DNA of 64,000 nt from an uncultured Gammaproteobacteria bacterium (GCA_964510885.1 CAZEDL010000006.1:12531-76530); one strand, 5' to 3'; counted from the first letter of the stretch, positions 4,459 to 57,210 are shown. The notes: a model not told the origin generated them from the letters alone. Numbers and translations: made by a program.

Positions 4459-5424
4459 TTAGCGCTGTGGTTCAAGGGTAATCACCGCCACCTCAGGCGG
4501 AGTAAATAACCGAAGCGGCGCGCCCGATTCACTGGTTCCAACCGTAGTAAAAATTGGTACCTTATTCCAAAAATTCAGCCAGCGATAAAAGCCTGTTCCG
4601 AGCCTAGACTCAACCTGCCCAAGTGGACCAAGCCATGGAAGCCATAGCTGCCCACCATGAGTATGGCCGGACACTTCAAGATCAGGCAGCGGCAAATCTT
4701 TCGGCCAAAATAAAATCCCGTCTGGATTATGACTAATCTGGATCAACGGGGTATGTGGTGGCCACTTTTTTAAGGCTGAAAAATCAAACTGCTGGCGGTA
4801 CACTTCATCCATGCCAAATAAACAAATAACCTGCTGCTTGATCGTAGGACATTCTAATTCGTTGACCAATAATGGCACATTAAGCTCAGCCAGCCGGGCA
4901 GACACGAGGGTAGATTTATCATAGTTAGTTTGGTAATCATAGGCCCGGTAGCCATATTCATGATTACCAAGCACGGCATAGACGGGTAACTTTTCAGCCA
5001 ATGCGCGCAAAGGTGAGAGGTATACGCTCTCGTCTTCCACCCCTTCATTTACCGTATAGTCGCCAGCGAGTAGAACCAGATCTGGGTTAATCGAGAGTAT
5101 AGTAGTGACCACTTTTTGTATCCATGCTTCTCGTTTGTGCTCACCGGCATGCAGATCAGAAACCACTACCACCCTAACGGGCTCTTTAATCCCGTTGATA
5201 GGGATGGATACCCGGTGTACCCGCAGCCAATTAGGCTCAATAAATCGGACATAGATGCCGAGTACAATAATAAGGCCTATAACAACTAAGAGGCCATAAG
5301 CCAAAAGCGGCCTACGCCCCAGCCAGGAGCGTTTATTTTTTCGGTCGCGGTTAAAAAAATAGGCGAGTAAAGCCAATACTCCTATGCCACCATACAGAAT
5401 TATTAAATACGGATTCAAATCCAT
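4459..5424 (-). CDS. Membrane-anchored calcineurin-like metallophosphoesterase
   Basis: Two N-terminal TM helices; DLH...GDY...GNHEY...GHTH phosphoesterase motifs. Confidence 0.8.
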   Translation of the reverse strand: MDLNPYLIILYGGIGVLALLAYFFNRDRKNKRSWLGRRPLLAYGLLVVIGLIIVLGIYVRFIEPNWLRVHRVSIPINGIKEPVRVVVVSDLHAGEHKREAWIQKVVTTILSINPDLVLLAGDYTVNEGVEDESVYLSPLRALAEKLPVYAVLGNHEYGYRAYDYQTNYDKSTLVSARLAELNVPLLVNELECPTIKQQVICLFGMDEVYRQQFDFSALKKWPPHTPLIQISHNPDGILFWPKDLPLPDLEVSGHTHGGQLWLPWLGPLGQVESRLGTGFYRWLNFWNKVPIFTTVGTSESGAPLRLFTPPEVAVITLEPQR

Positions 5425-5427
5425 AGT

Positions 5428-5658
5428 CTAATCAATATACCGAAAGCGGGGGACAGTGGCTCCATTATATTCTACCGTTTGCAAAAATTCTTCCTTCGGC
5501 CTAATAAACCAAGCTTCATTCCCAACCTCAGGATGATTATACAAGGCCTTATACACCACCTGTTTTTCTAGTGTTTCATGATGATATGCCTCACCAAGGA
5601 CTTCGTAAAAATTACCTTTGTAATGTTGGTAGCGGCCAAGCTTAATATGGTCAGTCAT
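5428..5658 (-). CDS. DUF1653-like small protein
   Basis: The motif YQHYKGNFYEV...YKALYN...WFIRP resembles DUF1653. The stop lies 4 nt from the downstream gene, so it is probably co-transcribed. Confidence 0.55.
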   Translation of the reverse strand: MTDHIKLGRYQHYKGNFYEVLGEAYHHETLEKQVVYKALYNHPEVGNEAWFIRPKEEFLQTVEYNGATVPRFRYID

Positions 5659-6055
5659 AAGAAAAAAAGTTTTTTAACTATACCAAAAAAATAAGCTATC
5701 GTCTACGTAAAATAAATAAAAACCCTTAAATTATAAGGGTTGTCTAGTTGCAGACGAAATAAAGTATTATCTGATCCAGAGTTTTGATATTTTTGAGTGT
5801 TTAAAGGTGTGTCTAGTCTTTATAGCTTTATAATATGAAGTTTTTATACAGTAGAAATATTATTTTGCAGTTAGATGTTTAGAGTTTTCTCTTATAGTTC
5901 CTGTACGAGAACAGAAGCTATAAGAGAATCGACGGTTGGGTAAGAAAAGAAACGGACCGTCGCGCCGTGTCATGAAGGCAAGAATTTTCACCTGACCTAG
6001 GTTTTCACCTAGGTCTACCTAGTCGCCCCCTCCTTAAGAATACGACGCGGTTTGG

Positions 6056-7843
6056 TTACTTGGCCAGCTCGGCCTCCCGCAGGATGCGCTCAACCTGGCC
6101 ATTGGTGATGGGGTGGTAGCCGGCCTTAACCTGTTCAAAGACGCGCCGCGCCCAGGCCAGGCCCTGGACGGTCTTCGCCTTGGCCCGCATCAGCGGGAGG
6201 ACGTACTTCATCCGGCCGCCCTCGACCAGGAAGCGCTCGATCTGGTCGTCCACCGCCGTGTAGCCGGACTCGACGGCGAGGAGGAGGAACGCCCACTTGA
6301 TCTCGGCGAAGCGGTTGGTGCTGAGGTTGAACTCGATGTCGAGCTTGGCGACGAACTCCGGGGTGGCCGGGCGCGGTAGCAGTTCCAGGTAAAGCGTCCA
6401 CTGCGGGTCGGACCAGGCCTGGCCGACCTCGCGGGGCGGGATGATGGACTGCTCAGCGTACCGCGCGACGTCGTCGATGAGCAACGACTCGATCTTCGGA
6501 GCGTTCTCGGGCCAGCCTGGCTCGTAGACGTAGCGCCAGGCCTGGACCTGCTCCAGCGCACCCGGCAACTCGGAGGCCACGAAGTCGAGGAAGGTGGCGG
6601 TATCGATGGCCGTGAAGCGGAACCGGGCGATGTAGGCCCGGATGAACCGGTCGAAGCGCTCACGCCCGACCCTCTCCTCGATGGCCCGGATGAACATCGC
6701 CCCCTCGAAGTACGGCACCCGCGAGAAGATGTCGTCGGGGTCGACGGCGCAGGAGATGTGGGTGGACAGGGCGGTAAGCTCGGGAGTGCCGGTCGTGATG
6801 AAGTGGTGGCAGTCCCGGCTGAACTCTCGGCCACGCAGGGCCATCTGCAGGAGGGCCGCGTCGCGGCCATGGAGCGCCTCGTAGATGCGCCACTCGATGT
6901 AGGTCGTCCAGCCCTCGTTGAGCCAGAACGACCGCCAGTCGGCATTGCCGATCAAGTTGCCGGTCCAGGAGTGGGCCAGCTCGTGGCCGACGACAGCCGC
7001 GCCGCCGGGGATTAGGGTGGGTGTCAGGAAGGTGAGCCGCGGGTTCTCCATGCCCCCGTAGGGGAAGGAGGGCGGCAGGATCAACAGGTCGAACCGCTCC
7101 CAGTCGTACGGGCCGAAGAGCCCCTCGGCCACGTCCATCATCTGTCCGACCTGGGCGAACTCAGCAGCCGCCGCGTCGACCAGCTCCACCTCGGACCAGA
7201 CGCGGCAGCGATCGGTGATGTCGCGCGACACCAGGTCGCCGACGGCGATGGCCATGAGGTAGGCCGGGATGCGCTGGGGCATACGGTATCGCTCGATCGC
7301 GAGCTCGCCCTGCTCCTCGCGGCCGAGGTGGTTGGCCGCCATGAGCGCGCGCAGCGCCTTTGGCACCGTGATCTCCGCCGAGTAGCTGAAGCGGATATTG
7401 GGGGTGTTCTGGCACGGCACCAGGCTCGGTGCGTGCAGGGCCTGGAATTGGGTGAACAGGTATGGGTGCCGCTTGCCCTTGGTCTGCTCAGCGCTGAGCC
7501 ACTGGATGCCGCTGGCCTCAGGCGAGGTGTGGTAGCGGATATTGACCCGGGGCTCGTCCTCGGGGACCATGACGTTCAGCCGCTGGCCTAGGACCGGCTT
7601 CGACTCGTGGAGCTGGAACTCCAGGGTCTGACCGGAGTTGTCGGTGACGGCTTCGATGGTGAGGTCCCGGACGTCGAGATCGACCGTGCCGCCCTGGCCG
7701 AAGTCGATAGTGGCGGTGCAGCTAATCGTCCTGGTGGCGAAGTTGATCTGGGCCTGCAGGTGCAGGTGGGTCATCGTCGGCTGACCCGGGCCGTAGTATG
7801 AATGCGGATCGCGCTTGATTGCTGGCATCTGCATCATGCACAT
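6056..7843 (-). CDS. M1-family zinc aminopeptidase (leukotriene A4 hydrolase/aminopeptidase N-like); high-GC gene
   Basis: HELAHSWTGNL...WLNEGWTTY is the HEXXH-(18)-E gluzincin M1 signature. GC is about 66% against about 50% in flanking DNA. The likely start is MCMMQM at 7843, preceded by GGAGAG; the ORF track extends to 7912. Confidence 0.85.
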   Translation of the reverse strand: MCMMQMPAIKRDPHSYYGPGQPTMTHLHLQAQINFATRTISCTATIDFGQGGTVDLDVRDLTIEAVTDNSGQTLEFQLHESKPVLGQRLNVMVPEDEPRVNIRYHTSPEASGIQWLSAEQTKGKRHPYLFTQFQALHAPSLVPCQNTPNIRFSYSAEITVPKALRALMAANHLGREEQGELAIERYRMPQRIPAYLMAIAVGDLVSRDITDRCRVWSEVELVDAAAAEFAQVGQMMDVAEGLFGPYDWERFDLLILPPSFPYGGMENPRLTFLTPTLIPGGAAVVGHELAHSWTGNLIGNADWRSFWLNEGWTTYIEWRIYEALHGRDAALLQMALRGREFSRDCHHFITTGTPELTALSTHISCAVDPDDIFSRVPYFEGAMFIRAIEERVGRERFDRFIRAYIARFRFTAIDTATFLDFVASELPGALEQVQAWRYVYEPGWPENAPKIESLLIDDVARYAEQSIIPPREVGQAWSDPQWTLYLELLPRPATPEFVAKLDIEFNLSTNRFAEIKWAFLLLAVESGYTAVDDQIERFLVEGGRMKYVLPLMRAKAKTVQGLAWARRVFEQVKAGYHPITNGQVERILREAELAK

Positions 7844-8054
7844 GTTGCTCTCCAATGCTGCCCCAACAGCAAGTTGATACGGGGGTGAGTGTGGTTGATT
7901 ATTCAACACCACTCAGCCCCGTATTCTTCAAAGAACAACATGATATATAAGCACTTGTCGCACTGAATGTCAATCGAGAGATAGTCAATATCAGCAATTA
8001 AATTTTCTAAATAAATAGAGGATTATTTTTTGTCACCCTTGATTCGATTCTTAC

Positions 8055-10037: not shown

Positions 10038-11564
10038 TTATGATTTCGGCGGAGTCGGCACTTTACCGCGTTTATACGGAATAATCTGTTTTATCCAGCT
10101 ACTCAGCGACGTATTCTTCAAGGAGTTTTTAATATGCGCCCGCGCGTGGTGCGTCTTTACGGTTTTCAGCCAATCCGGGCTCGGGCCTTTGCGATTCTTG
10201 TCGATCGTGATCGCCACCACGTCGCCGCTTTTAAGCGGTGTATCAAGTGACATCAATTGATCATTCACCCGGGCACCGCTACACTGGTTGCCGATATCGC
10301 TATGAATATGATAGGCAAAATCCACCGGCGTGGCATCTTCGGGCAAATCGATCACGTCGCCCTTCGGGGTGAAGACAAAAATTCGGTTCTGGAAAAAATC
10401 TACTTTCAATTCTTCCATCCCCGACAGGTTCACCAAGATTTCCTGCTGGATTCTGGCCAGTTCCTTGGCCCAGGCCACATCACGCGGGGGCCGGCGCGAC
10501 CCTTTTTCATCATAGAGCCAATGCGCGGCCACACCGAATTCCGCTTCCGCATGCATTTCCGGGGTACGAATCTGGAATTCCACCACCTTGCCATTATCGG
10601 CAAACACCGTGGTATGGAGCGACGAATAGCCGTTCGGCTTCGGCTGCGCAATATAATCTTTAATCCGGCCTTTCAGGGGCCGCCACAATTGGTGAATGAT
10701 CCCGAGCGTGGCATAACAATCGCCCACATCACCCACAATCACGCGCAGCGCCACAATGTCATACATCTTATCCGTTTCCCAGCCTTTACGCTGCAATTTT
10801 TGAAACAAGCTATAGAGCTGTTTTTGTCGGCCGTAGACATCCATTAATTTAATATGCGCCTTAGATAATTCCGTCCGGATTCGGGCCGTTACTTTTTCGA
10901 TCGAATCGCCCTGATCTGCCAGCAGACGATCGCGGATAGTTTTAGTCCGTTCGTATTCCTTGGGATAAATATACGGGAAGGACAAATCTTCCAGAAATCC
11001 TTTGAATTCACCCATGCCGAGGCGGTGCGCGATCGGAGCATAAATCTCAAGGCTCTCGAGCGCAATTCGGTGCCGTTTTTTTTCGGGCAGAGCATCGAGC
11101 GTGGTCAAGTTGTGTGTTCGATCGGCAAATTTAATCACCATCACGCGGACATCTTCGGCCATGGCCACGAACATCTTGCGCAAATTTTCGAGGTAGCGCT
11201 CAATGCCGCGGTATTTGAGTTTGCCAAGCTTCGTAATCCCTTCGATCATTTTGGCAATATCAGCCCCGAAATTTTTTTCAATCTCGGCCAGTGTCACTGC
11301 CGTATCTTCCGGCACATCGTGCAGGAGGGTGGCCACAATAATATTCGTCTCCATGCGCATTGTGGCCAAAATCCAGGCTGCCGCCAGAGGGTGCACAATA
11401 TATGGCTCGCCGGATTTGCGGAATTGTCCCGAGTGAGCGTTGGCTGCAAAATCATAGGCCAACCGCACCATTTCAAGATCCGATGATCCGCGGTACGACC
11501 GGATTTCTTTGACCAGTTTATCAATCGTCAGATCAGCGGGGATAGTAGTGCTGCTATATGACAT
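10038..11564 (-). CDS. Bifunctional (p)ppGpp synthetase/hydrolase Rsh (RelA/SpoT homolog), short form
   Basis: HD hydrolase domain (HD...DVPED), synthetase domain (RTPEMHAEAEFGVAAHWLY) and a TGS region. At 508 aa the C-terminal ACT/RIS region appears to be missing. Confidence 0.9.
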   Translation of the reverse strand: MSYSSTTIPADLTIDKLVKEIRSYRGSSDLEMVRLAYDFAANAHSGQFRKSGEPYIVHPLAAAWILATMRMETNIIVATLLHDVPEDTAVTLAEIEKNFGADIAKMIEGITKLGKLKYRGIERYLENLRKMFVAMAEDVRVMVIKFADRTHNLTTLDALPEKKRHRIALESLEIYAPIAHRLGMGEFKGFLEDLSFPYIYPKEYERTKTIRDRLLADQGDSIEKVTARIRTELSKAHIKLMDVYGRQKQLYSLFQKLQRKGWETDKMYDIVALRVIVGDVGDCYATLGIIHQLWRPLKGRIKDYIAQPKPNGYSSLHTTVFADNGKVVEFQIRTPEMHAEAEFGVAAHWLYDEKGSRRPPRDVAWAKELARIQQEILVNLSGMEELKVDFFQNRIFVFTPKGDVIDLPEDATPVDFAYHIHSDIGNQCSGARVNDQLMSLDTPLKSGDVVAITIDKNRKGPSPDWLKTVKTHHARAHIKNSLKNTSLSSWIKQIIPYKRGKVPTPPKS

Positions 11565-11882
11565 ACAGCAAGAAAAATTTTAATTTTCGATAATAAATCT
11601 CTATGCGCAGTATAGCTTTTTAGACTAAAAATGTCTATAAATCAGTCGTTTTATGGCTAATTTTTGGGTGTAATTACCCTGTGTATAACTCCGTTGACAC
11701 CTCCTGCAGCCATGATAAGTTACATAGTATAAAAAATATGAATCTCATTCACCAAGCTCATCAATTGTTTACTAATAAGGTCAGCATCTTGCCGACCATT
11801 ATTTGCGTAAATAATTTTTACTGGACGAAGGGTGATGAGCGCATAGGTGTAGCCTGATACCAGGCCACAATCTAAAACCACA

Positions 11883-11913
11883 TCACCCTGAATCTAACGA
11901 TCAGGGTGATTTT
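11883..11913 (+). terminator. Terminator-like hairpin TCACCCTGA-loop-TCAGGGTGA followed by TTTT in a noncoding region
   Basis: Seen in sequence. No annotated gene lies upstream on the plus strand, so it could end an unannotated small transcript. Confidence 0.35.
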
Positions 11914-12078
11914 AATTAAGACTGCTCTTTCACATCTGCTAACAATTGCTTGGCCATCAGCCCATACGGGGGTTATGTACTAATGGTCGAGCGATTGTTT
12001 AGTAACTATTTTCAGGCCCATCGGCCTGAAACAGCGCTCGAAAGTCCTGGCTTGCCCAGGCATTCATAAGGAGATCCC

Positions 12079-12285
12079 ATGCCGTTCGCCACCGCTTCCC
12101 AGGAAGATCATCCTGCCACCAGCCCGATCCACCCTGCTGCCCAGGAGTCCGCCGATGCGCCCGCGGACCCTCTGTTCATCGATGAGGTCCACGAGGTCTT
12201 CAACATCCCGCGTCGGCCCTCTGGGCCTGAGGTGGGGGGTGACCCCGTGTACAAGAGGCCACGCGGAACCTACTTCGTGTCGTAA
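12079..12285 (+). CDS. Hypothetical 68-aa protein in a high-GC segment, with a strong Shine-Dalgarno
   Basis: AAGGAG lies 6 nt before the ATG. GC is about 62% with GC3 bias. No recognisable domain. This could instead be part of a structured RNA. Confidence 0.3.
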   Translation: MPFATASQEDHPATSPIHPAAQESADAPADPLFIDEVHEVFNIPRRPSGPEVGGDPVYKRPRGTYFVS

Positions 12286-12320
12286 TCATCGGCACGCAGT
12301 TCACCGCCGGACGCTCGAGC

Positions 12321-12390
12321 GCTCCGGTCTTCCGGTGTTACCGGAACTGATGAGTCCTTTCAGAATAAGATCAGGACGAAACCAAATTCG
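12321..12390 (+). ncRNA. Candidate type III hammerhead ribozyme
   Basis: GUC cleavage triplet at 12327-12329; stem I hairpin UUCCGGU-GUU-ACCGGAA at 12330-12346; CUGAUGA at 12347-12353; stem II GUCCU...AGGAC at 12354-12377; GAA at 12378-12380; then AC starting stem III. All 11 conserved core nucleotides are in canonical positions. Stem III is only about 3 bp (A-U, C-G, C-G). Confidence 0.6.
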
Positions 12391-12397
12391 TGAGTTA

Positions 12398-12426
12398 CCA
12401 GTTTGTACTGGCTTTATTTGTTTTTT
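12398..12426 (+). terminator. Hairpin ACCAGT-ttgt-ACTGG followed by a T-rich run, downstream of the hammerhead motif
   Basis: Seen in sequence. Confidence 0.4.
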
Positions 12427-12467
12427 TAAATTAAAATATAACCTATTAAAATAAAATTGCCTATAGT

Positions 12468-12896
12468 ATGTCAAAAAATAAACCTGAAGTCCCATTCTGG
12501 GATTTCCCCCCAGAAAATACCGGTTCAGTTTTGGAAGAAAATGGCAGGCCAGTGCGTGACCGAAATGCCGCGGATGTTTTTAATAAATTAGAAAGAAAGG
12601 CGAATGAATGGGGAATTGATCTTGGCTCACTAAAAATTTTAGACAGACCTGAATTGATTGCCCAGTTATTAATTGATAAAAAAGTTGCAATTGTAGCAGA
12701 CGGCCCTTTTATAAATGATCATGATATGCAGACAATAGCGGATGCTGTTGTAGAGGATTGGCGCCCGGCATCTGGCACTTTGAGCGATCACGAGCGACAA
12801 AACTTATCTGCATTAGTGTATGACTGCCTCTCTCTAAACGAAGGTGAAGAGGAATTATTGGCAGCATATAATAAAGGAATTAAAAATAAAGAGTAA
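12468..12896 (+). CDS. Hypothetical protein (142 aa, acidic, no recognised domain)
   Basis: ORF only. Confidence 0.5.
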   Translation: MSKNKPEVPFWDFPPENTGSVLEENGRPVRDRNAADVFNKLERKANEWGIDLGSLKILDRPELIAQLLIDKKVAIVADGPFINDHDMQTIADAVVEDWRPASGTLSDHERQNLSALVYDCLSLNEGEEELLAAYNKGIKNKE

Positions 12897-12931
12897 TCTA
12901 TATTATTTAATTGGTATCGTAAAATATCCTC

Positions 12932-12960
12932 TTGACAAAATCCTCAAACTGTGCTATACT
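12932..12960 (+). promoter_or_regulatory. Near-consensus sigma70 promoter TTGACA-17-TGcTATACT (extended -10)
   Basis: TTGACA at 12932-12937, TATACT at 12955-12960, TG at -15/-14. Confidence 0.6.
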
Positions 12961-12965
12961 ACCAT

Positions 12966-13056
12966 TTGTGATACAAAGAAAACCTTAGCGCCAACGTATA
13001 ACCCCACTAGTAATAGCGGGGTTATATCGTTTTAAAAGGTATAGATGGCCAAATAG
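12966..13056 (+). ncRNA. Candidate small RNA 1 (about 90 nt), promoter-to-terminator unit
   Basis: It follows the promoter at 12932-12960. It contains the hairpin AACCCC-12nt-GGGGTT (13001-13024) and ends at GGCC-AAATA-GGCC followed by TTTTTT (13037-13056). No plausible ORF and no downstream plus-strand gene. Confidence 0.4.
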
Positions 13057-13082
13057 GCCGTTTTTTGTTTAAGCGTGGTCAA

Positions 13083-13179: not shown

Positions 13180-13207
13180 TTGCATTTTTAGCGATTTTTG
13201 CTATACT
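13180..13207 (+). promoter_or_regulatory. Second near-consensus promoter TTGCAT-16-TGcTATACT
   Basis: TTGCAT at 13180-13185, TATACT at 13202-13207, extended -10 TG. Confidence 0.55.
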
Positions 13208-13212
13208 GCGCG

Positions 13213-13306
13213 CGTAGGCCTCAATCGGGCCTTTGTATCACCTTTGGCATCAAGGCATACCCTTTGAGCCTACATTAAAAACATCCCGTGGCGGGATGTT
13301 TTTTGA
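13213..13306 (+). ncRNA. Candidate small RNA 2 (about 93 nt)
   Basis: It starts after the promoter at 13180-13207. An 8-bp closing stem GUAGGCUC...GAGCCUAC encloses a CCUUUG-repeat region. It ends at the terminator AACATCCCG-tg-GCGGGATGTT followed by TTTTTT (13280-13306), which also serves the convergent gene at 13321. Confidence 0.4.
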
Positions 13307-13797: not shown

Positions 13798-13825
13798 CTC
13801 CGTGTAGGCGAAAACTACACTCGAC

Positions 13826-13916
13826 TGTCATCCTGAGCGTTAGCGAAGGATCCCTTAACGCTAACTTCATCGATGCTTTTGATTTTAAGCGATTCTTCGT
13901 TTCACTCAGAATGACA
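13826..13916. repeat. MITE-like repeat family B, copy 1 (about 91 bp; TIRs TGTCATCCTGAG...CTCAGAATGACA)
   Basis: The left 35 bp is near-identical to 52203-52237, and the terminal inverted repeats match. Confidence 0.7.
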
Positions 13917-13937
13917 AGTTGATTGCGATGTGTGACT

Positions 13938-13964
13938 GGATTCCCGCTTTCGCGGGAATGACAA
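13938..13964. repeat. Repeat family A, short copy (GGATTCCCGC-tttc-GCGGGAATGACA)
   Basis: It shares the GGATTCCCGC/GCGGGAAT palindrome. Confidence 0.55.
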
Positions 13965-51122: not shown

Positions 51123-51947
51123 TTACCACCATGTAATATTGACATGACTCCAGGCCTCCCACCAACGGCTCCAGTTCCATTTCCAGGGCCAACCGTAGGT
51201 GGCCAGCCGCTTCCACCAGGGTGGCAGATGTGTGGTGCCGAAGAGTCGGTCAGCGATAGCCAAGCGACTGGTGATTTCGAGCCACATGCTCGGGCCACCC
51301 TTCATCGAGAAGCCGAACTGGCGGCCATAGCCATGGTGCAATCCATGGTGCGGGCGACAGCCAGCAATCAGCCAGCCATAAGCCCCGGTCGGCTGCCATT
51401 CGGTGTGGAGGGTAAAGTGCACCACATCGATCCACCAGGCTTTGCCGATGGCGTACGTAATGGCCGCTAGCGCCACCCGCGGGCTCAAGAACCAAAGCCA
51501 CCCGAATACCGCCCAGTCAGCGAGGACAGCTGCTGGCATTGAGCGGAGCGGGAAGAAGAGCTCGGACAGATCGCTCGGGTTCGCATGGTGCGCCCCGTGG
51601 CTCCGGCGTGGGCCACGGGGTAAGATTAGGCTCGTCCATTTCAGCACACCGCGCGGCACATGCTGCACATTGCCATGGATGAACCATTCAAGAGAGAGCT
51701 TGATGAACAGAATCAGGCCGATCGCGATGAGGGCGAGCACCCAGTGATGCGGAGTGCTGGTGAAGCGCGGTACGCGAAAAAAGGCGGCAAGATGGGTGAG
51801 GAATAGCAGGGCCAGGAACCACGGGGTCGGCTCCCTGATGATAATGGCGAGCGCCTTCTCAAAGGTGTCAGTGTTCGGAATAAAAAAGCTCGGGCTCGGC
51901 TTGGCGTTAGTCGGAGTCATGGCAAACCTCCTTGCCTTTTTTGGCAT
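51123..51947 (-). CDS. Fatty acid hydroxylase superfamily membrane protein (sterol desaturase-like; histidine boxes)
   Basis: His clusters HGAHH and HHGLHH in a multi-TM context. GC is about 57%, above the background. Confidence 0.55.
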   Translation of the reverse strand: MPKKARRFAMTPTNAKPSPSFFIPNTDTFEKALAIIIREPTPWFLALLFLTHLAAFFRVPRFTSTPHHWVLALIAIGLILFIKLSLEWFIHGNVQHVPRGVLKWTSLILPRGPRRSHGAHHANPSDLSELFFPLRSMPAAVLADWAVFGWLWFLSPRVALAAITYAIGKAWWIDVVHFTLHTEWQPTGAYGWLIAGCRPHHGLHHGYGRQFGFSMKGGPSMWLEITSRLAIADRLFGTTHLPPWWKRLATYGWPWKWNWSRWWEAWSHVNITWW

Positions 51948-52202: not shown

Positions 52203-52294
52203 TGTCATTCTGAGCGTTAGCGAAGAATCCCTTAAAGTTAAATTTTGGTATTAGTTTTAGCGTCAAGGGATCTTTCACTGCGTTCAGGATGACA
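52203..52294. repeat. MITE-like repeat family B, copy 2 (TIRs TGTCATTCTGAG...TCAGGATGACA)
   Basis: The left arm is near-identical to 13826-13860. The internal inverted repeats are GTCATTCTGAGCGTTAGCGAAGAATCCC and GGGATCTTTCACTGCGTTCAGGATGAC. Confidence 0.7.
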
Positions 52295-56517: not shown

Positions 56518-57210
56518 ATGAACAAAAAAATTGGTCAGACCCTTGCGATCCTCGCCACCCTTCTCCTCGGCGCTTGCGGCTCCACGGAGTCGGGGCCGCT
56601 GGAGAAGGATCCTGCGCCCACCGCTCCCCAGACCGTCTACGGCGCCTGCACCTCCGACTCGCAGTGCCCCGGGGGCACGTGCCAGCAGGGCGTCTGCGTG
56701 GTCGAGAAGATCATCACGGTGCCGGCTGAGCCGGTCTGTGGCATCCGCTATAGCAAGCTGGATCTGGCCCCGGTGCCCTCGCGCAGCGAGCCCGTACAGC
56801 CGACCCTCTGCTTCCGCGCCGAGCCCTCGGTCATCTCGCCGAACTGCCAGCCGGTGGCGACCAATTTCGCATTCATCTTCCGCGTCAAGAGCGAGCGCCT
56901 CGACAAAGTCAACGTGATCCCGGGTGCGACCGTCGATGGGCAGAGCGTGGCCTTCCCGCTCCTCAACGGTGGCTCGCTCGGACCGAGCGGCTGGTACTAT
57001 GTCCGCCATGAGATCGCTGGCGTTCGCGACATCGGCAACGGCCTCACCATCTGCGCGCAGTGCACCAACTGCGCCACACCCGACGATCAGCCAAAGCTCG
57101 GTGTCTACATGGAGAGTCGGCTCGAGGGCGTGACGTGGGCCAAGACGCCGACCAGCGCGACCGAGAAGAACTACAGCCTCGACCTGCCCGTGGCGCTCGG
57201 CATCTTCTAG
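56518..57210 (+). CDS. High-GC Cys-rich lipoprotein (hypothetical)
   Basis: Lipobox LLLGAC, a GGAG-type RBS, about 64% GC with strong GC3 bias, and Cys-rich segments (CTSDSQCPGGTCQQGVC, CAQCTNC). Confidence 0.6.
   Translation: MNKKIGQTLAILATLLLGACGSTESGPLEKDPAPTAPQTVYGACTSDSQCPGGTCQQGVCVVEKIITVPAEPVCGIRYSKLDLAPVPSRSEPVQPTLCFRAEPSVISPNCQPVATNFAFIFRVKSERLDKVNVIPGATVDGQSVAFPLLNGGSLGPSGWYYVRHEIAGVRDIGNGLTICAQCTNCATPDDQPKLGVYMESRLEGVTWAKTPTSATEKNYSLDLPVALGIF

Follow-up and report, generated by a model that had tools for sequence, protein, structure and literature searches.

Hammerheads are the commonest self-cleaving ribozymes. Type III hammerheads are found in retrozymes and viroid-like circular RNAs, where some members have a short stem III and act as dimers. 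Such elements need two direct-repeat copies of the ribozyme, on either side of a unit of about 0.3 to 1 kb, to free an RNA that can be circularised. The 5'-OH end left by a self-cleaving ribozyme is treated differently by bacterial RNases from a triphosphate end. In bacteria, hundreds of hammerheads are known, many of them near prophage integrase genes (PMC3088659). Multiple copies often flank genes of inconstant identity, and the long transcripts are probably cut into gene-length mRNAs; the functions of bacterial hammerheads remain unproven (PMC3088659).

Here, we describe a motif in a 64-kb stretch of DNA (the whole stretch is called the window) for which an initial annotation had proposed a full type III hammerhead core in a high-GC intergenic segment. 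We find that it is very probably an additional member of this well-known RNA class. It is unusual only in that its host belongs to the Patescibacteria and that it lies where a variable, high-GC orphan gene ends.

Anatomy of the motif

The complete module occupies positions 12326-12383 of the plus strand, as delimited by the sequence itself, our own descriptor, the alignment to Rfam RF00008 and the ortholog described below (L097). Read as RNA, it is GGUC UUCCGGU GUU ACCGGAA CUGAUGA GUCCU UUCAGAAUAAGAUC AGGAC GAA ACC. The segment 12326-12329 holds the 5' strand of stem III (G12326-G12327-U12328, i.e., G16.3, G16.2 and U16.1) and C17 (C12329). Stem I (12330-12346) has 7 Watson-Crick bp, UUCCGGU/ACCGGAA, with 12330-12336 paired to 12340-12346 around loop 1, GUU (12337-12339). 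Then come the catalytic core strand CUGAUGA (12347-12353, C3 to A9) and stem II (12354-12377), in which 12354-12358 pair with 12373-12377 in 5 bp (GUCCU/AGGAC) around a loop 2 of 14 nt (12359-12372). The last segment (12378-12383) combines the core GAA (12378-12380; G12, A13 and A14) with the 3' strand of stem III (A12381-C12382-C12383; A15.1, C15.2 and C15.3). Every core position is occupied as in a hammerhead: C3 to A9, G12, A13 and A14, the A15.1-U16.1 pair (A12381-U12328) and a non-G at position 17 (C12329). The predicted cleavage site is C12329|U12330. The order of the elements is that of type III, with helices I and II closed by loops and helix III open, and G10.1-C11.1 is present as G12354-C12377.

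The sequence and the descriptor thus agree with the initial annotation on the full core and on a 7-bp stem I and a 5-bp stem II placed as the core requires. Its reservation about a weak stem III was also justified: the stem has 3 bp, without extension, and it likewise has 3 bp in L097.

The two loops may be in tertiary contact, of the sort that supports fast cleavage at physiological Mg2+. Loop 2 contains the motif AGAAU, and sequence and folding make a distal 2-bp helix possible in the same loop. Loop 1, GUU, is complementary to the AAU of AGAAU, which is the sole stretch of loop 2 kept in L097, and we infer that the two could pair. Stems I and II differ in length by 2 bp, which is typical of type III hammerheads stabilised by a pseudoknot (PMC3088659).

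Chance occurrence and covariance-model score

Applied to both strands of the 64-kb window, our type III descriptor returned a single site, 12326-12383. No second hammerhead was found on either strand, and a search with all Rfam families revealed no ribozyme of another class above noise in the window. Among 400 dinucleotide-preserving shuffles of the window, 11 contained a loose match of any kind and a single one reached a total of at least 15 bp, while stems of at least 7, 5 and 3 bp were never obtained together. On sequence statistics alone, the motif is therefore improbable by chance, yet possible in a very large scan. The earlier judgement that a chance occurrence is unlikely agrees with these shuffles, none of which was as good, and the syntenic ortholog L097 removes the doubt that was left.

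The Rfam covariance-model check proposed in the initial annotation gave a divided answer. The Hammerhead_3 model (RF00008) does align to 12326-12383, with E = 0.0063 on 301 nt, but the score of 23.8 bits is under the curated gathering threshold of 48.5 bits. When the whole window was compared with all 4227 Rfam families, the hammerhead had an E value of 1.3, which corresponds to about 3e-4 for that one family. The gathering score is a poor judge here, because even one of the two L099 copies (see below), a Patescibacteria hammerhead of perfect build whose stem III has 7 bp, reaches only 44.7 bits. The second L099 copy (30.3 bits), L097 (29.3 bits) and L098 (25.1 bits) are below 48.5 bits as well.

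Conservation at a syntenic locus

A generic type III pattern, GGTC-N(13-27)-CTGATGAGTCC-N(6-30)-GGACGAAACC, was run against 185,579 species genomes. Only four loci were found: L096, L097, L098 and L099. The first of these, in Streptomyces, was discarded as a chance match, with stem I absent and the surrounding DNA uniformly GC-rich; L098 and L099 are discussed further below. L097 is syntenic with the window. Its topA and membrane-protein gene have about 74% DNA identity to those of the window, the two small-RNA-like units are 79-80% identical, the 39-aa ORF with its terminator 71% and the hammerhead region 86.6%. The search of related genomes that had been suggested for this region thus yielded an ortholog at the same chromosomal position. 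The L097 contig (CAZPCV010000016.1) has the record title "uncultured Gammaproteobacteria bacterium," yet it is collinear with the Patescibacteria window, which suggests that it was mis-binned or mislabelled.

The ribozyme of L097 lies at 1084-1143, and the module measures 58-60 nt across the two loci. In an alignment of about 800 nt, the longest identical run is 12326-12358 (33 nt), which covers the 5' strand of stem III, C17, stem I, loop 1, the core strand and the 5' strand of stem II. A second identical block of 12 nt (12372-12383) covers one base of loop 2, the 3' strand of stem II, GAA and the 3' strand of stem III. The limits of identity coincide exactly with the edges of the hammerhead, starting at G16.3 and ending at C15.3. 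By contrast with the core and the helices, loop 2 and the flanks have changed. Loop 2 is UUCAGAAUAAGAUC (14 nt) in the window and AAUUGUAGAAUGCGAC (16 nt) in L097, both versions retaining AGAAU and a distal helix beyond an internal loop (2 bp in the window, 4-5 bp in L097); a loop that diverges while keeping these elements follows the pattern expected of a constrained structured RNA. Over about 400 nt upstream of the ribozyme the two loci have random-level identity, and their downstream flanks differ by a 31-nt indel.

No substitution separates stems I-III of the window from those of L097, the only ortholog found, and compensatory changes that would prove the helices are therefore lacking; only the distal extension of stem II differs, and it is still paired. 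Between two loci whose flanking genes are only about 74% identical, DNA free of constraint has been randomised; that the ribozyme has stayed intact therefore points to purifying selection on this element itself, neither to recent transfer nor to chance. The hammerhead block was absent from the relA neighbourhoods of eight other related sequences (L029, L100, L101, L103-L105, L107 and L108) and is therefore lineage-specific. At the "empty" site of L100, relA is followed by two small-RNA units, the membrane-protein gene and topA.

Could the motif be an inactive look-alike, that is, a chance match or decayed relic, or a conserved block with another purpose such as a DNA- or protein-binding site? 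The covariance-model score under the threshold, the weak stem III and the lack of compensatory substitutions between the two orthologs would all fit such a reading. Yet chance is excluded by the independent syntenic occurrence with identity confined to the ribozyme, as well as by the absence of any match of equal quality among the 400 shuffles, and a role other than that of a ribozyme would give no reason to expect that it is precisely the 13 core nucleotides and the three helices that are kept while loop 2 drifts. We regard a look-alike as highly improbable and are confident that the window motif is a genuine, conserved type III hammerhead.

Host and gene neighbourhood

The window encodes, around the motif, parA, parB, a 508-aa RelA/SpoT homolog (10038-11564, minus strand), orphan ORFs, a membrane protein and topA. 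Those RelA homologs that carry a source name come from Patescibacteria or Candidatus Magasanikbacteria, and we accordingly assign the host, by its sequence, to the Patescibacteria (CPR). An exact match to the RelA of the window itself was looked for and not found. Two independently assembled short contigs match the window at 100% over 11500-13046, so the junctions in this region are real. In these contigs the 142-aa ORF described below is also 100% identical to that of the window, and they therefore bring no comparative information.

The left conserved flank in common with L097 (11738-11917, plus strand) consists of a 39-aa ORF (11738-11857) and a terminator hairpin (11883-11909) with a T run. 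This ORF (MNLIHQAHQLFTNKVSILPTIICVNNFYWTKGDERIGVA) has a counterpart only in L097 (434-610, terminator included), has a well-conserved terminator hairpin behind it and gave no Pfam match. A weakly conserved leader, CAATTGCTTGGCCA ... ATTGTTTAGTAAC, follows at 11940-12005 (plus strand). It has weak similarity to L097 650-700 and is possibly the promoter or 5' UTR of the transcript of the high-GC cassette that comes next. This cassette forms an island of 62-69% GC (from about 12010-12030 to 12350) in a window of 49% GC, in line with the high-GC segment described in the initial annotation, and its 3' edge is the hammerhead.

The island contains an SD-led orphan ORF of 68 aa (12079-12285, plus strand), with AAGGAG at 12068-12073 and GC1/2/3 of 0.68/0.51/0.75; the hammerhead starts 41 nt past its stop codon. 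We found no homologs of this ORF in 5.8 billion or 1.84 billion proteins, in Pfam or in PHROGs, and its exact sequence is absent from the records as a called gene. On the other side of the ribozyme, 14 nt after its end, there is an intrinsic-terminator-like hairpin, CCAGU-UUGU-ACUGG (12398-12411), with a T run (12398-12427 in all, plus strand); it falls in the 31-nt stretch missing from L097. Both the small SD-led ORF just upstream and the terminator-like hairpin just downstream had been pointed out before, and both are there.

Further elements lie downstream. An orphan ORF of 142 aa (12468-12896, plus strand) matches only itself among 5.8 billion proteins. At L097 this ORF is missing, and the hammerhead runs straight into the first small-RNA promoter. 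This suggests that the ORF is a lineage-specific insertion, equipped with an AT-rich promoter-like region of its own. Next come two small-RNA-like units, adjacent and conserved (12932-13066 and 13180-13305), each with a sigma-70-type promoter and a terminator, and they are also found in L097, L029 and L100. The 11-nt GUGAUACAAAG near the 5' end of the first unit (12968-12978) is the reverse complement of the conserved CUUUGUAUCAC in the second (13231-13241). This unit-to-unit pairing is kept by two independent compensatory changes, GUAAUACAAAG/CUUUGUAUUAC in L029 and GUGAUACUAAG/CUUAGUAUCAC in L100, and within the first unit there is, in addition, a hairpin with strong covariation. The units could not be assigned to an Rfam family, the sole match being a weak "rimP leader" at 27 bits. 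Finally, short repeats of the form GTCATTCCCGCG..GCGGGAATCC occur in the window at 13819-13855, 13937-13963 and 52266-52294 and in L097 at 191-267; they have the appearance of a REP-like dispersed repeat.

Competing folds and prospects of cleavage

The sequence and its folding reveal a GC-rich palindromic hairpin, CCGGACGC-UCGA-GCGCUCCGG (12307-12327, plus strand), that overlaps the 5' end of the module. In one register this hairpin sequesters G16.2 and G16.3; in the other (12309-12325) it abuts stem III. The hammerhead fold is not the predicted minimum-energy structure at the motif. In ViennaRNA nearest-neighbour ensembles, which leave out the tertiary contacts and stabilisation of the hammerhead core, its share is about 3% for the bare 58 nt and about 1e-6 with flanks of 30-60 nt, a drop that occurs because the hairpin can capture G16.2 and G16.3. 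The same calculation gave 3e-4 to 2e-3 for L097, 0.14 for L098 and 0.44 for L099.

Hence, the ribozyme could be thought of as slow or conditional. Most transcripts would stay uncut owing to the palindromic hairpin and to a stem III of 3 bp, and cleavage would need help in opening the hairpin or in stabilising the junction, be it from a protein, temperature, Mg2+ or co-transcriptional kinetics. The reduction of the predicted hammerhead share by about four orders of magnitude in context speaks for this, as does a stem III that is short in both orthologs, and regulation has been proposed for examples of bacterial hammerheads (PMC3088659). However, the competing hairpin is not kept in L097, where the upstream flank is unrelated and has no counterpart of it, no ligand-binding or switch element is recognisable in the motif, and the thermodynamic models omit the tertiary stabilisation of the hammerhead. 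We consider a ribozyme of this kind quite unlikely. Cleavage of the window hammerhead in vivo is, on balance, probable.

Other natural hammerheads

The genomes of L098 and L099 were deposited as Patescibacteria. Their type III hammerheads are placed 70-250 nt past an ORF and ahead of AT-rich promoter-like DNA. The one in L098 lies about 245 nt past a 234-aa ORF; L099 has two, each about 70 nt past one of two paralogous genes (134 and 155 aa). Both loci are like the window in having type III order and the frame GGUC...CUGAUGAGUCC...GGACGAAACC, and L098 is also at the edge of a high-GC island. They differ from it in their unrelated stem I and loop sequences and in a longer stem III (4 and 7 bp, respectively). 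The L099 copies differ further in that they are embedded in DNA of native GC and that a gene is flanked by the pair. These copies (4869-4924 and 5594-5649) have the same orientation, are 725 nt apart and differ by one stem III base (G-U vs G-C). The pair brackets one of the paralogs, and cleavage at both would free a 725-nt RNA with 5'-OH and cyclic-phosphate ends, a candidate for circularisation.

A metagenome scan with the same generic pattern returned 66 loci with 84 matches, and stem I, which the pattern does not require, forms in most of them. Three of these loci (L057, L044 and L064) resemble the window motif in build: stem I has 7 bp and a loop of 3 nt, loop 2 has 12-15 nt, and all three are located between ORFs. 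Scanning viral contigs with the core and stem II only gave 26 loci, mainly of type II, and patterns specific for stem I had no match in the viral contigs. Some metagenome contigs (L076, at 5211-6647, L077, L093, L043 and L045) contain arrays of type III hammerheads with up to four copies at a spacing of 360-540 nt. There are no convincing ORFs between these copies, and the arrays look like tandem, retrozyme-like repeat units. In L076, the DNA just ahead of the first copy reaches 68% GC.

High-GC islands upstream of the ribozyme

Flanks on either side and the ribozyme itself are common to the window and L097, but the islands of 62-75% GC between leader and ribozyme cannot be aligned, and each is equipped with its own strong SD and small ORF. 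Such an arrangement could mean that a gene-capture or cassette slot exists here, with the hammerhead as its conserved 3' boundary, and that unrelated foreign high-GC ORFs have repeatedly entered it behind a resident leader and ahead of the ribozyme. As a component of the slot or of a mobile unit, the ribozyme would then do more than trim an mRNA. The islands have not decayed to the composition of the host although they are unalignable, which argues for separate acquisitions. The hammerhead of L098 likewise closes off, on the 3' side, an island that measures at least 950 nt and has 60-72% GC. Among 34 non-redundant type III hammerheads, an upstream GC content at least 0.10 over the locus average was seen only in the window and L097, and L098 comes next (+0.09). 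A general tendency of type III hammerheads to be preceded by GC-rich DNA was rejected, the mean upstream excess over the 34 loci being just +0.017.

On the other hand, genes for an integrase, recombinase or reverse transcriptase were not found nearby, nor was any repeated recombination site. Furthermore, high-GC orphan genes without a hammerhead are common in this genome and its relatives, and the association may be coincidental. The independent cases number only two, one formed by the window together with L097 and the other by L098. We hold a slot bounded by the ribozyme to be an unlikely explanation. In its most far-reaching form, the hammerhead of some Patescibacteria would end a fixed slot composed of a leader, a swapped SD-equipped orphan cargo of 60-75% GC and the ribozyme, making up a cassette-capture or cassette-expression system, possibly with an RNA-level step at or near the cleavage site; this we hold to be very unlikely.

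Genes of 60-71% GC, none of them with a hammerhead, are scattered through Patescibacteria DNA of 37-49% GC. In the window they are found at 6056-7912 (minus strand), 51123-51947 (minus strand) and 56518-57210 (plus strand), and in related sequences at 9084-9533 of L029, 7612-8391 of L107 and 4085-4429 of L103. They include an M1 aminopeptidase/LTA4-hydrolase-like gene and a 274-aa ORF (51123-51947). The orphans at 56518-57210 and in L029 are lipoprotein-like, with a cysteine after a hydrophobic N terminus. From its composition, this gene set looks like the outcome of frequent foreign gene acquisition in the lineage.

The four high-GC islands showed no homology to one another. Those of the window and L097 also differ in their folding. 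Relative to shuffled controls, the island of the window is mildly structured (z = -2.3) and that of L097 strongly so (z = -7.2). Beyond a 45-aa ORF, L097 has several near-perfect GC-rich hairpins of 9-15 bp (880-1083). A rod-like, viroid-style fold was rejected for both islands, as the first is only mildly structured and the second is a series of separate hairpins.

A proposed 3'-end-forming role for the ribozyme

The sequence data show the motif, that it is not random, and that it is selectively conserved as a discrete unit. We infer that transcription passes through the motif, that the RNA is cleaved in vivo and that cleavage has a 3'-end-forming or insulating role. Our preferred explanation, which we hold to be somewhat better than evenly supported in its entirety, is a cis-cleaving type III hammerhead that belongs to the cassette transcript's 3' UTR and contributes to the formation of the transcript's 3' end. 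The initial annotation had already raised the processing of the 3' end of the upstream ORF's transcript, and the layout of the locus makes this plausible. Transcription of the plus strand from the high-GC cassette (ORF 12079-12285) would produce an RNA that folds as a three-way junction, where the 2'-OH of C12329 would attack its own 3' phosphate. The resulting 5' fragment would be the mRNA of the cassette (ORF68), ending in the GC-rich hairpin followed by GGUC with a 2',3'-cyclic phosphate. The 3' fragment would begin with a 5'-OH at U12330 and contain the body of the ribozyme and the terminator. In this way, the cassette transcript would gain a defined, hairpin-capped 3' end, uncoupled from the downstream DNA. 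In L097, the conserved small-RNA promoter follows the ribozyme with no terminator between them, so the ribozyme would be the sole 3'-end-forming or insulating element there. In the window, this role would be partly redundant because a terminator follows 14 nt on.

These results have several implications. Searches of the literature turned up no paper on hammerheads in Patescibacteria or CPR, and the motif thus extends the host range of hammerheads to a group for which we found no published report. The curated thresholds of covariance models miss real, selectively conserved copies whose stem III is limited to 3 bp and whose stem II is extended. The high-GC cassettes directly upstream of the ribozyme may be a coincidence or a pointer to a cassette slot. 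One ribozyme at one locus with two unrelated, foreign-looking upstream genes, in the window and in L097, constitutes a natural comparison. If cleavage is confirmed, this pair could serve to test a role of the ribozyme as 3'-end former or insulator for newly acquired genes.

Comparison with known systems

The bacterial and phage type III hammerheads (RF00008, clan CL00010; PMC3088659) are the systems to which the window motif is closest. It has their catalytic core, GUC cleavage triplet and G10.1-C11.1 pair, with helices I and II closed and III open, and like them it is intergenic, just after a gene, with neighbours of variable identity. It differs from them in a score below the gathering threshold and a 3-bp stem III, in a stem II that continues past an internal loop into a distal helix, and in its location in a Patescibacteria chromosome without prophage or integrase context. 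The prophage-associated clusters of hammerheads (Perreault et al. 2011, PMC3088659) are a different setting: no phage, integrase or reverse-transcriptase gene is found near the motif. PHROG searches gave no significant match in its vicinity (best E 0.017-0.084), and comparison of the region with phage and plasmid DNA collections yielded chance-level matches only. The initial annotation had considered that the whole block could be the remnant of a retro-element or phage-like insertion. This alternative found no support, given these results and the lack of a second hammerhead. A retrozyme or viroid-like element was rejected, because the hammerhead is present as a single copy in 64 kb, has no flanking direct repeats and is part of a bacterial chromosome.

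Self-cleaving RNAs in untranslated regions are also represented by RiboJ, an engineered insulator of 5' UTRs, and by the glmS ribozyme, which is ligand-dependent and has a different fold. Unlike glmS, the window motif shows no evident ligand or regulatory logic. Both are functional analogies to the window motif: in each case, a self-cleaving RNA of an untranslated region separates, or in the window would separate, coding RNA from neighbouring sequence.
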